From: an uncultured Candidatus Rokubacteria bacterium
GTDB lineage: Bacteria; Methylomirabilota; Methylomirabilia; Rokubacteriales; CSP1-6
Assembly: GCA_963758635.1 (NCBI GenBank)
Contig: CAVWWD010000003.1
Coordinates: forward strand, 384,001 to 448,000
Direction: 5' to 3'
Length of the DNA stretch: 64,000 nucleotides
The position numbers were made by a program, and so were the translations under genes. Positions 15,273 to 23,771 of this stretch are shown here, piece by piece. Positions within the stretch are counted from its first letter, which is position 1. Every line of letters begins with the position of its first letter. The notes beneath the pieces were generated by a model. The model was not told where the DNA came from. It worked only from the letters and a program-made list of their open reading frames with translations, and ran no database searches.

Positions 15273-16253
15273 TTACTCGATCACCTGGTCTGCTCGGGCG
15301 AGCACCGACGGCGGGATCGTCAGGCCGAGCGCCTTGGCGGTCTTGAGATTGATCACCAGCTCGAACTTGGTCGGCTGCTCCACGGGGAGATCGCCCGGCT
15401 TGGCCCCTTTGAGAATTCGGTCGACGTAGCCAGCCGCGCGGCGATACAAATCGTCGAAATTCGTCCCGTAAGACATGAGGCCGCCAACCTTCACATTCTC
15501 CCCCACTGCCCAGATTGTCGGAAGGCGGCCTTTGATCGCGAACTCGGCGATCCGTCTCCGGTGAGTACCGAGCATCAGGTCCCCAAATACGATCAAGGCT
15601 TCGGGCCGCTCATTTCTCATCACGGCAAAGGCACGGTCGAGATCGTCGGGTCCTGTGGCCTCCAGAGCGCGAAGTGTCACGCCCAGAGCTGGAGCGACCG
15701 CCTGGATCTCTTTCAACTGGAGCGGATTCGTGGGGTTGTCAGGATTCAACAGGACAGCGACACGCGAGGCCGTGGGCACGACTTCCTTCAGGAGTTCGAC
15801 CCGTTTGGTCACCACACCCAGGTTGAAGTCTGATAGCCCTGTGATGTTGCCGCCCGGCCGAGCGAGATTTGTAACCAACCCCGTCCCGACAGGATCGGCG
15901 GCATTTCCGATAACGATGGGGATCACAGTCGTAGCATTCTTCGCAGCGTGGGCGGCGTTCGCGCCTACCGCGACCAAAATGTCGACTCTGAGACGGACCA
16001 GCTCGGTGGCAAGATTGGACAACCGTTCAAATCGTCCGTCAGCATAGCGATACTCGATTATGATGCTTTTCCCGGACACATACCCGAGTTCGCGCAGCGC
16101 TTGCTCGAAAGCAACTACACGGCCCTTGATAACCTCAGCCGCCGGGGTCGCCAGAAACCCTATTCGCGGGATCTTCTTCGCAGGCTGCGCCTCGGCGCCG
16201 CGCGGCGCGGCGAGCAGGCCGAGGGCGCCCAGGAAGGCGCGCCGGTCAAGCAT
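15273..16253 (-). CDS. ABC substrate-binding protein (ABC_sub_bind/PF04392-like), paralog 1
   Basis: [53 protein letters not shown]. Confidence 0.9.
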   Translation of the reverse strand: [326 protein letters not shown]

Positions 16254-16563
16254 CGCGGGCCACCTGCCGCGCCATCGTGGCCGCCGTGGACGCGGCACGG
16301 ATGTCCTTGTGCGTGATCCGGAACACGGGCACACCCTGTTCGTCACGCACCCACTGCGCGATGGCGAAGTTGCGCGGGTCCGCGTACCGCGTGAGCTGCA
16401 GGTCGTACCCCTGGCGCGCCATGCCCGTCTCGAGGTCGCCGATGGCGCGCCACGTGTCGAGCCAGCCGTGCAGCGCACGGACGCCCGGATGATCAGGTAG
16501 CGGCATGGTGGCGGCTTCGACGGTGAGCCAGAGCAGGCGCGCGCGAGGGTTGAGCATCGTCAC
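16246..16563 (-). CDS. Small hypothetical protein, apparently chimeric
   Basis: Overlaps SBP genes on both sides; C-terminal part homologous to 17552-17704. Confidence 0.6.
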   Translation of the reverse strand: MTMLNPRARLLWLTVEAATMPLPDHPGVRALHGWLDTWRAIGDLETGMARQGYDLQLTRYADPRNFAIAQWVRDEQGVPVFRITHKDIRAASTAATMARQVARDA

Positions 16564-17555
16564 TCGATCACGTGGTCGGCCCGCGCCAGCAGCGACGGCG
16601 GGATCGTCAGGCCGAGGGCGCGGGCTGCCTTGAGGTTGATGATCAGCTCGAACTTCGTCGGTTGCTCGATCGGCAGGTCGGCAGGCTTGGCGCCCTTCAG
16701 GATTTTGTCGACGTAAGCCGCGACGCGCCGATAGATCTCGACGAGATCCGCGCTATAGGAGATCAGCCCGCCTGCCTCGACGAAGAGCCGGAGGACATAC
16801 ATGGTGGGGAGCCGGCTCTTTGCAGCAAGCTCCGCGATTCGCCCAGCGTGCCTGTCGAAGAACCCGCCCGCGAGCACGAGGAGAGCGCCGGCGCGCGCGC
16901 CAGTCGCCGCCTTGAGCGCCCGCTCGATCTCGCCGGCATCTCGAATCTCGAGCGAGAGCAGCTTCCACCCCCGCTCCCTGGCAGCGGCCTCGGCCGCCTG
17001 CCAAGTCAGGAGGTTGGTTCGATGCCAGAGGACCGCCACTGTCGCCGCACCCGGGACGAGCTCCTTGAGCAGCTCGAGCCGCTTCCCGGTGATCTCTATC
17101 GACTGAAGGCTCAGCCCCGTGAAGTTCCCGCCCGGTCGTCCGAGGCTCTGGACAACCCCCTGGCCCACGGGGTCGCTGGCGCCCGCCATGACCACGGGGA
17201 TCGTCGAGGTTGCCTGCTTCAGCGCGCGCAGCATAGGCGATCCGGCGACGATCACGTCTACAGGGAGACGGACCACCTCGGCCGCGAGGCTGGGGAAGCG
17301 CTCCGGCTTGCCCTCGCCCCCGCGAGGCTCGGTCACGAAATGGGCGCCATACACGTAGCCAAGCTCGCGCAAGCCGCGCAGGAGCGCGTTGACCAACGGG
17401 GACTGGGGCTGGGGCCCGACCATTTCGGAGGTCATGGAAGTAGGACTCAGGATCCCGATCCGATAGACCTTGCGCGCGGGCTGGGCGAGGGCGGCGCAGG
17501 GCACCGCGAGGGTCGCGAGGGCGAGGGCGCCGAGGAAGGCGCGCCGGTCCATCAT
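16560..17555 (-). CDS. ABC substrate-binding protein, paralog 2
   Basis: Same family motifs, intact 331 aa. Confidence 0.9.
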   Translation of the reverse strand: [331 protein letters not shown]

Positions 17556-21790: not shown

Positions 21791-22779
21791 TCGATCACCT
21801 GGTCCGCCCGCGCTAGCAGCGACGGCGGGATCGTGAGCCCGAGCGCCTTGGCGGTCTTCAGGTTGATCACGAGCTCGAACTTCGTGGGCTGCTCGACCGG
21901 AAGGTCGGCGGGCTTGGCGCCCTTGAGGATCCTGGTGACGAACATCGCTCCCTGTCGCCAGATCGTGATGAGGTCTGGGGCATAGGACATCAGGCCGCCG
22001 GTCTCGACAAATGCGCGGAGGGGATACATGGTGGGAAGCCGGTTTCTCACGGCCAGTTCCGCGATGCGTCGTCTTTCTGTGAACGCCAATGCGCCCCCCA
22101 CGACGAAGAGCGCACTGGCCCGCGCCTCAGTCGCCGCTCTGATGGCCCCATCGATTTCACCAGCGGCTCGAATCTCAAGCGACACCAGCTTCCAGCCCCG
22201 GGCACGGGCGGCGGCTTCAGCCGCCACTAACGAGCGGTGGCCCATTCGATCCCAGAGAACGGCTACGGGCGCTGCACCCGGGACCAGTTCCTTGAGCACC
22301 TCGAGCCGCTTTCCTGCCGTCTCGACGGTCTGAAGGCTCATCCCCGTGAAATTCCCGCCCGGTTGTCCAAGGCTTTGGACGAGACCCCCCGCCGACGGGA
22401 TCAGTGGCCGCGACCATCACGACGGGGATCGTCACCGTCGCCTGCTTGAGCGCCGCCAAGGTTGGCCCCGGCGCGACGATCACGTCGACAGGGAGACGAA
22501 CCAACTCGGCCGCCAGCCCTGGCCAATGCTCCGAACCGGTCACTGCTGCGGGGCTGGGTCACGTAGTGCTCTCCGTAGATGTAGCCGAGCTCCCGCAAGC
22601 CAACTATGAGCGCATTGATGTAGGGGGCCCGGGGCTAGGCCCGACGAAAGTGGGGGAGACGTGGTGACGCCAAAGATGAGCCCCGACGCGGGAACGCGAC
22701 GCGCAGGCTGGGCGCTCGATGCGCGGGGCATGGCGAGGGGTCCGAAAGCGAGGCTGCCGAGGAACGCGCGCCGATCCAT
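21787..22779 (-). CDS. ABC substrate-binding protein, paralog 6 (frameshifted)
   Basis: MDRRAFLG start, conserved C-terminus; core resembles paralog 2. Confidence 0.8.
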
Positions 22780-23771
22780 TACTCGATCACCTGGTCCGCC
22801 CGTGCGAGCAGCGATGGCGGGATCGTGAGGCCGAGCGCCTTGGCGGTCTTGAGGTTGATCACCAGCTCGAATTTGGTGGGTTGCTCGACAGGGAGATCGG
22901 CGGGCTTCGCGCCCTTGAGGATCTTGTCAACGTAGGTGGCGGCCCGCCGGTGGAGATCGAGAAAGCTTGGCCCGTAAGACATGAGACCCCCGTCCTCCAC
23001 ACTCTCCCTGTTGCCGTATGCTGTCGGCAGGCGGCTCCTGGCTGCGAGGTCTGCGAGCCGTGTTCGGTAGGAGCTGAATATCGCATCTGACAGTACGAGG
23101 AGGGCTCCCACGCGCTCTTTGGCCATCGCCGCGAATGCGCCGTCGAACTCGTTCGGACCTCGAGCCTTCAGGAGTTGAAGCTGCACTCCCAACGACCGCG
23201 CCGCGACGTTGACTTCTCTTATCGCGAGCTGGTGGTACGCATTGGCCGGGTTCGAGAGGATGGCCACACGGCGGATCTGGGGGACGGTCTCCTTGAGCAG
23301 CTCCAGTTGTTTGGCGACGGTTTCCAGGCCGGCGTAGCCGGACACTCCTGTGACGTTCCCGCCCGGGCGCGCGAGGCTCGCGATGAGCCCGGTGCCAACA
23401 GGATCGCGAACGGCAATCATGACGATGGGGATCGTCTCGGTGGCGTTCTTGGCTGCCGTCACTCCTTGCGTCCCGAACGATACGATGAGGTCCACTTTGA
23501 GCCGGACCACCTCGGCCGCCAAGTCGGGCAGCCGGTCGACCCGATCCTCCGCATATCGATAGTCGATGACAATATTCTGGCCCTCAACCCACCCAAGCTC
23601 GCGCAGCCTTTGCCGGAACGCGTCGAGCAGGGGCGGCCTATCGGAAGGGGACGTCAAACTAAGAAAACCTATCCGAGGCACCTTTCCCGCCTGCTGCGCG
23701 TCGGCGGCGAGCGGGGCGGCGAGGAGACTCACGGCGAGGACAGCGACGAGTGCGACACCCCTGATCATCAT
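22779..23771 (-). CDS. ABC substrate-binding protein, paralog 7
   Basis: Intact 330 aa with family motifs. Confidence 0.9.
   Translation of the reverse strand: [330 protein letters not shown]

Follow-up and report, generated by a model that had tools for sequence, protein, structure and literature searches.

Shared gene ends are likely crossover points for the exchange of binding cores among tandem PF04392 genes

Results

A tandem array of seven PF04392 genes

The window analyzed here is a 64,000-nucleotide stretch of the genome of an uncultured Candidatus Rokubacteria bacterium (G000; the window is G000:C3:384001-448000), in which a 24.7-kb integrative element carries seven genes of the ABC substrate-binding family PF04392 (g1 to g7, at 15273-23771; Table 1). 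All seven lie on the minus strand, and the five intact genes match the Pfam profile with E values of 1e-38 to 1e-52 and scores of 133–178 bits, against a cut-off of 25.9. A first reading of the letters alone (the sequence-only reading) had described seven co-oriented paralogs, five of them abutting, and this layout is confirmed, g1 to g5 being joined by overlapping stop/start codons. Six genes begin with the DRRAFLG motif that it had noted, and g1 starts with MIRGVALV. The g6 and g7 units are parted from g1–g5 and from each other by small open reading frames (ORFs), named X before the gene and Y after it.

Nucleotide identity across the seven genes falls from 0.79 in the signal region to 0.54 in the core and rises again to 0.85 over the last 48 codons, and the GC content at third codon positions (GC3) is 0.96, 0.76 and 0.91, respectively. 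The cores are as divergent as had been claimed (34–66% protein identity). The description of the 3′ ends as near-identical was overstated for the DNA, since the last 150 nt are 79–90% identical between pairs (median 85%), with 91% identity in the protein. The cores had also been called AT-rich, which is true of third codon positions and not of overall GC content, 0.65 in both the core and the 3′ end. Perfect shared runs measure 12–40 nt in the junction blocks and 9–17 nt in the cores.

Closely related cores lie between different ends

The core of g3 is 99.4% identical to that of a copy on contig C12 of the same genome, and the two 3′ ends are 89% identical. The sequences differ at 2/339 nt in the 3′ half of the core and then at 16/144 nt from codon 282 onward; the silent differences are 2/110 and 10/44, respectively (Fisher p = 7e-5). 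The first 60 nt and both neighboring genes differ as well. A contig from run X1 spans 553 nt of g3 with four differences. The C12 copy belongs to a sister element (G000:C12:1-28400) with the same gene order (cyclase-AAA-TPR, array, Y, cargo, HTH, AAA_25, HTH, integrase), in which the g3 twin is split by ~7.5 kb carrying ParB-like, Mu-type transposase and integrase genes.

Genes in other Rokubacteria, and one in an alphaproteobacterial array, have cores 94–98% identical to that of g1, in every instance with different ends and different neighbors. Compared with the copy on contig C8 of G038, a genome of another genus, the core is 94% identical (54–60/60 nt per block) and the 3′ end 83–87% (49–51/60 nt per block), and the signal peptide is a different one. 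The alphaproteobacterial copy (L177, Hyphomicrobiaceae according to its record) is identical to g1 at 675/691 nt and is the last of four array genes, which have RRR motifs at the start and ADEVIE at the end. Its first 12 codons are 70–76% like those of its array neighbors and 47–56% like those of the window genes, and its terminal 17-mer occurs eight times on five contigs of its own genome, four times in the genome of a further locus, L180, and nowhere in G000. L180, on a 435-kb contig with a YidC closest to those of Methylobacterium and Sinorhizobium, has a core 87% identical to that of g1 and ends of the L177 kind.

The reverse arrangement, in which shared flanks surround unrelated cores, was also found. 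The g7 unit and the unit at C4:367871 agree at 49–54/60 nt on both flanks and at 28–40 in the core, so that unrelated cores occupy the same X-[gene]-Y slot, and the g5 unit shares its flanks with C12:11458.

In a set of 280 genes, silent divergence of the 3′ end exceeded that of the core in 14/14 gene-disjoint close pairs, and a smaller set gave the same direction in 12/12 pairs, with the step at codon 281; a pair borne on IS256 elements is nearly level (silent divergence, dS, 0.015 vs 0.027). Over 24,867 pairs, the ends are more diverged than the cores where the cores are close, and less diverged where the cores are distant. Distal ends are 0.80 alike within rows and 0.75 between rows, and cores 0.54 in both; the nearest core lies in the same row for 8/109 genes, against 23/109 for the nearest end (chance, 1.4%). 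The window cores are scattered on a quickly built core tree (6 changes for 7 rows). Silent change in the ends does not follow that in the cores, and gene order is not fixed, the 230 cores falling into 169 types with 75/75 adjacent type pairs distinct. Both results accord with the sequence-only reading, which took the ends for recombination anchors through which cores are swapped. That proposal holds in so far as the ends behave as crossover zones and the core moves. The shared gene ends are thus likely to act as crossover points for trading binding modules between unrelated bacteria.

Binding fold and candidate partners

A structure model of g3 (predicted local distance difference test, pLDDT, 90) aligns with TrpX/CD0873-type structures (3LFT, 3LKV and 6HNI) with TM-scores of 0.79–0.80 and 26–28% identity, and predicts a type I periplasmic binding fold like that of 3LFT and 3LKV. 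Sequence entropy is 2.27 in the loops after the core strands, 1.26 before the strands and 0.53 in the tail. In this fold, the loops after the core strands face the cleft. Variation is thus highest in loops at strand C-termini, in line with the sequence-only reading. The ratio of non-synonymous to silent change (dN/dS) of the cores is 0.5–0.7 in close pairs, and 0.73 in the cleft loops vs 0.48 elsewhere. Positive selection on the cores was considered and rejected: the ratio hints at it but stays below 1, and for GC-rich close relatives simple counting gives inflated values.

The family annotation and the fold would suit proteins that undergo the same recombination and feed one or several promiscuous ABC transporters of another type, or that serve as adhesins or as sinks for ligands. 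The title given to CD0873 describes it as a binding protein that has adhesive properties, G000 has many LivH/M-type permeases (65 PF02653 matches), and most arrays have no adjoining sensor. Nevertheless, only one of the 43 PF04392 loci of G000 lies within 1 kb of a PF02653 gene, and the three window genes scanned score 110–161 bits against the TrpX equivalog profile, whose cut-off is 390. A search with two queries from annotated operons found no counterpart of the TrpY-type permease in G000 (best match 29%, a LivH type; positive control 38.5%, E 4e-51), an assembly that is 87% complete, so that a permease could be missed, which tells against our preferred interpretation. With one query, such a permease was found in 6/61 related genomes and in 0/37 genomes of the family (these tallies include unpublished genomes), and it was near none of 160 loci from metagenomes and genomes. 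Together with the repeated operon-like order of these genes and dCache receptors, this makes a transporter, sink or adhesin role rather unlikely. Compared with the TrpX/CD0873 aromatic amino-acid binding proteins, the genes described here share the family, the fold and an alignable C-terminus; they differ in their twin-arginine-type signal, in the lack of a detected TrpY-type permease and in their occurrence as tens of copies per genome in rows. The TctC/Bug expansions of Rhodoplanes and Bordetella (PMC5994714) are likewise orphan binding proteins in tandem arrays (up to nine genes, members <50% alike) near kinases and transporters. They belong to another family, and that paper argues for within-lineage duplication, with genes rare in low-GC islands; the cores studied here are AT-shifted, lie on mobile elements and are shared across lineages with changed ends.

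Sensors are the more probable outlet. G000 encodes four dCache-HAMP-GAF kinases, three directly after a PF04392 gene and one 2.2 kb away behind other genes, and 46/61 genomes have such a sensor. Stand-alone dCache sensors are the best candidate partners because array-type genes directly precede a sensor elsewhere, in seven loci (L066, L046, G000:C9, L184, L185, L204 and Rhizobium L112, whose sensor is a dCache cyclase). From this gene order, a dCache kinase or cyclase is likely to be the partner. Several observations pull the other way. PF04392 genes lie upstream in 16/30 sensor loci and all 16 are closer to a separate clade; the other 14/30 have no upstream binder, three of them with little room for one; dCache domains occur in only 4/80 loci around g1 relatives, and the element itself contains no sensor. 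Two of the G000 sensor pairs involve the separate clade, which has its own tail. In all of the 15 best sensor loci (L116–L130), one dCache kinase subgroup is preceded by a fixed, host-like PF04392 clade that has a conserved tail of its own; the members of this clade at G000:C2:3294-4277 and C8:269099-270157 offer a clean candidate binder-sensor pair. The pairs LuxP-LuxQ, HptA-HptS, ChvE-VirA and NspS-MbaA (PMC8050422) also place a binding-protein gene beside a dCache-type kinase or cyclase; those are single pairs, and the pairing proposed here is suggested by gene order. PMC8050422 does not mention PF04392, which PMC9602780 lists in its methods only.

PF04392 arrays in soil lineages

The sequence-only reading had treated the array as a system of this element, which did not hold up: G000 has 43 PF04392-like loci, 35 near full length, with further rows on contigs C7, C8, C11 and C12, and tandem arrays occur in many soil lineages and contexts. 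The family is present in 21/21 genomes searched (including the unpublished G009), and well-assembled relatives have 24–62 matches, plus a six-gene row. At least two copies are found in 54/80 metagenome and 53/80 genome loci, and 79/141 complete 3′ ends lead directly into a further copy; these loci were picked as best matches, a choice that may favor rows. Named hosts include Rokubacteria, Binatia, Alpha- and Betaproteobacteria, several Ca. Rokubacteria are among the closest named records to g1, and culturable Rhizobium and Bradyrhizobium carry the same genes. No close DNA match to the g7 core was found in 120 relatives, and no relative of g5 in viral contigs. A strict junction pattern matched 4/41 genomes, the junction letters being lineage-specific. 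Summed contig depth in soil runs reaches thousands at the 3′ ends and is mostly <100 over the cores, which places the 3′ end among the most repeated coding sequences in the soil runs examined.

The arrays could also be largely neutral, the shared ends being a recombination trap that gathers cores without benefit while many copies decay, as the broken and partial copies in G000 and the core dN/dS of 0.5–0.7 in close pairs might suggest. Against this, only 10/176 aligned copies from short-read metagenome loci have a frameshift and three a stop, and core types are kept across genera. The G000 assembly carries indel breaks in several genes, the element integrase among them, and contigs from other runs show extra bases at the breaks within the element backbone. 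We consider neutral accumulation quite improbable.

Two further observations concern the surroundings of the arrays. Zinc ribbon-cyclase-AAA-TPR genes often lie directly upstream (L103, L105, L107, L108 and L172), twice behind a GAF kinase; G000 has 51 PF00211 matches, and at C8:501139 the TPR end continues into the final third of a gene for a binding protein. A four-gene array ends at L002:8200-8300 (G004:C142), beside what by eye resembles a tRNA sequence, which hints at an island linked to a tRNA.

Protein constraint on the gene ends

The RRxF motif is present in 36/40 aligned proteins, and the DRRAFL of six of the seven window genes is presumably a twin-arginine motif. Together with a hydrophobic stretch, an AxA site and a host TatC, it predicts export by the twin-arginine translocation (Tat) pathway. 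The C-terminus aligns with the structures 3LKV (Vibrio) and 3LFT (Streptococcus), and the 3′ end has a dN/dS of 0.14. Since the ends are conserved first as protein, their role as anchors is probably a consequence of that constraint rather than the work of a dedicated DNA site.

Silent identity was compared with a codon null that sampled host codon use conditional on the two neighboring residues (500 draws). The 5′ ends of the window genes reach 0.77 vs 0.57 in the null, and the last 30 codons 0.78 vs 0.66, values attained by 0/500 draws in either case. The excess in the window ends persists against 12 other G000 copies (0.79) and hardly against relatives (0.64 vs 0.63), which points to local homogenization and not to a universal DNA site.

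A plain lineage expansion, in which old duplicates keep similar ends through protein constraint and host codon bias only, would account for the alignable C-terminus, the RRxF motif, the low dN/dS and a whole 3′ end close to the host-codon expectation. It cannot yield cores 94–99% identical with ends 76–89% identical and different neighbors, it does not fit the 14/14 pairs in which the part of the gene under the strongest constraint changes faster at silent sites, and the step changes in the g3 and g1 cases contradict it unless the assemblies are chimeric. We regard it as highly improbable.

Probable mechanism and vehicles of exchange

None of four junctions has an attC-like hairpin, 8/8 strands folding no better than shuffled sequences (z −0.9 to +3.0), and Rfam gave no match. 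As the sequence-only reading had stated, neither an intI nor a reverse transcriptase accompanies the array. The sole over-cut-off match to the integron integrase profile TIGR02249 in G000 is at C6:379797-380475, >100 kb from any PF04392 locus on that contig, and reverse transcriptase matches (PF00078) lie on C10 and C11 only, so that the array does not qualify as a diversity-generating retroelement. Breakpoints fall inside the coding ends at differing codons, ~15–25 and 272–282. Because no hairpin was found at the junctions, the intI and reverse transcriptase genes are on other contigs and the breakpoints differ between cases, we infer ordinary homologous recombination as the mechanism; a RecA-like ORF is present on C10.

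An integron-like system, in which a site-specific recombinase would stack single-gene circles at the stop/start junction, has very little chance in our estimate, since its points of support (the uniform 1-kb period, the overlapping junctions and the C6 integrase) are met by junctions that fold no better than shuffles, by junction letters that vary between lineages, by breakpoints at differing codons inside the coding ends in three cases and by the distance of that intI from the C6 loci. Integrons have attC hairpins and an intI beside the cassette row. The arrays resemble them in having rows of ~1-kb variable units in changing order, and differ in having no attC-like hairpin or adjacent intI, a single gene family and crossovers inside coding sequence. 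In the Staphylococcus aureus lpl cluster (PMC4470592), co-oriented paralogs also sit on an island, and a stretch conserved within the genes has been proposed as the driver of their shuffling and duplication. That cluster, in a single species, keeps the middle constant and varies the ends; here it is the ends that stay alike and the ligand-binding middle that is exchanged, between genera and between phyla.

Arrangements with an IS256 transposase end, a PF04392 gene and an inverted-repeat-like sequence, the last read by eye, were seen at C4:152539, C8:20716, L008 and L016, and IS256-borne copies in G017 and G020 are 99% identical over the whole gene. The G000 elements that apparently carry such a passenger between transposase and right end span C8:20624-21750 and C4:152500-153759.

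The element and its boundaries

The G000 assembly comprises 6.2 Mb in 12 contigs with 71% GC. The element is bounded by 21-bp direct repeats (20/21 alike), the attachment (att) sites, and was correctly recognized as satellite-like by the sequence-only reading: it has the integrase, att repeats, an excisionase-like gene and replication genes of an integrative satellite-like element, and its genes include two HTH_17 genes, DUF3987 and DUF5681. No terS or capsid match was found among 15 element ORFs in a PHROGs search, in which DUF5681 received no assignment. The absence of a permease or ATPase from the element was likewise confirmed; the ATPases of LivG/LivF type at 28767-30270 belong to the host and lie beyond the right att. 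Among two genomes used for same-site comparison (G038 and G026, no same-genus genome being included), G038 has the oxidoreductase and, ~1.2 kb on, a homolog of the right-flank ATPase with no element between them, and G026 has a different gene order at the host flanks. Tycheposons and satellites like phage-inducible chromosomal islands (bioRxiv 10.1101/2020.12.28.424599) are alike in end integrase, excisionase, small replication module, cargo and att repeats; the present element sits in a protein gene, not a tRNA gene, and PF04392 arrays are found outside such elements too.

Within the array region, a second Y copy (85%) follows g5 at 18624-18835, and Y also stands behind PF04392 genes on C4, C8 and C12 and in G038. 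An Atlas search with Y returned unnamed clusters only, and it weakly resembles unnamed small viral proteins (score 0.93). X recurs ahead of g6 and of C4:367871. A scan for sigma-70 promoters and terminators gave nothing exceeding shuffled sequences. A TonB_C ORF lies at 17973-18515, and other cargo at 10320-15060 comprises an ACT-domain protein, an HNH nuclease, GIY-YIG-like and SprT-like proteins and a META protein. The DUF5681 ORF has its 3′ part in two copies (24337-24460 vs 28057-28180, 83%), one on each side of the inverted cyclase gene.

Table 1. Features of the element and its PF04392 array (window coordinates).
Feature	Position	Strand	Remarks
Left att repeat	4055..4075	.	Inside the 3′ end of the host FAD oxidoreductase gene
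Tyrosine integrase	4219..5310	-	Frameshifted in the assembly
HTH_17 (excisionase-like), DUF3987 primase/helicase, unclassified 418-aa ORF, second HTH_17	5605..9177	-	
Small CxxC ORF Y	15057..15263	-	After g7
g7, PF04392	15273..16253	-	Intact; lowest GC3 core, 0.67
105-aa ORF	16246..16563	-	Between g6 and g7; last 43 aa are X
g6, PF04392	16560..17555	-	Intact
g5, PF04392	18841..19836	-	Intact; core type also at G000:C4:348944 and in 3/120 relatives
g4, PF04392	19833..20804	-	Seven frameshifts and a stop in the assembly
g3, PF04392	20801..21790	-	Intact; core 99.4% identical to C12 copy with other ends
g2, PF04392	21787..22779	-	Three frameshifts in the assembly; core type as in g6
g1, PF04392	22779..23771	-	Non-RRxFL signal peptide; after the IS256 transposase 3′ remnant
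Junction block, example	21728..21877	.	Last ~90 nt of one gene and first ~60 nt of the next
Further junction blocks	22720-22869, 20742-20891, 19774-19923	.	Excess silent identity, no hairpin
IS256 transposase 3′ remnant	23768..24010	-	Abuts g1
Zinc ribbon-adenylate cyclase-AAA-TPR gene	24561..28053	+	Frameshifted; often adjoins such arrays
DUF5681 ORF	28050..28439	-	Far end of the element
Right att repeat	28740..28760	.	Just ahead of the host LivG-type ATPase

Discussion

The best explanation of these observations, to which we assign a probability of roughly 70%, is that a tandem array of genes for exported substrate-binding proteins has exchanged its cores with copies elsewhere, likely through ordinary homologous recombination between the shared ends, and that its products probably supply membrane sensors with ligand-binding input and do not feed a transporter. 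By acting on the signal peptide and on the last 48 residues, selection would hold the ~150 bp at each stop/start junction similar enough, in thousands of soil copies, to support RecA-type crossovers. Two such crossovers would replace a core or add one to the row, and IS256 and integrase elements may ferry rows between cells. The cores would bind different small molecules and the constant parts would pass the signal to a small number of dCache-HAMP kinases or cyclases, a last step that is the weakest and that we hold to be an even bet.

A number of results weigh against this explanation. Much of the end similarity is protein constraint together with codon choice like that of the host: for the 48 terminal codons as a whole, identity is 0.68, and host codon use predicts 0.65. 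Codons 282–299 fall below the codon null, as do the cores, and the distal excess is not significant in seven genes of G004 (74/300). The distal 30 codons of L177 are 0.62–0.70 alike to its own array and 0.66–0.76 to the window genes, and L177 stands on a 6-kb binned contig for which misbinning is possible. The nearest 3′ end lies in the same array for only 23/109 array genes, and a tree of 3′ ends gives no resolved grouping. The runs, whose contigs break at the repeats and none of which contains >0.17 of the words, showed neither circles nor an empty att site, nor a close strain with an array at the same site; joints with short sides were set aside. Finally, two of the seven genes (g2 and g4) are broken in the assembly.

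A wider proposal, which we put forward tentatively and consider less probable than not, is a soil receptor library spanning several phyla. The coding ends would serve as universal recombination arms, and the core of a Rokubacterium gene could reach an alphaproteobacterium in a single step, gain a local signal peptide and tail and plug into resident dCache kinases or cyclases, giving an integron-like sensing repertoire without a recombinase or site of its own. Its parts are known separately: orphan binding-protein expansions with rows (PMC5994714), paralog shuffling (PMC4470592), binder-stimulated dCache receptors (PMC8050422) and cargo elements (bioRxiv 2020.12.28.424599). No paper on these PF04392 arrays was found in a search that left out most subscription papers. 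To the known parts, the window adds evidence at the level of breakpoints and a core shared across phyla.

The genes are annotated as transporter parts, yet most genomes that carry them appear to lack that transporter, and arrays are undercounted because their repeated ends break short-read assemblies. If the explanation favored here holds, they would be a rare instance in which parts of genes have passed nearly unchanged between phyla and the breakpoints can be seen, open to a direct test in culturable Rhizobium and Bradyrhizobium, and would explain how uncultured soil lineages acquire new chemical senses.

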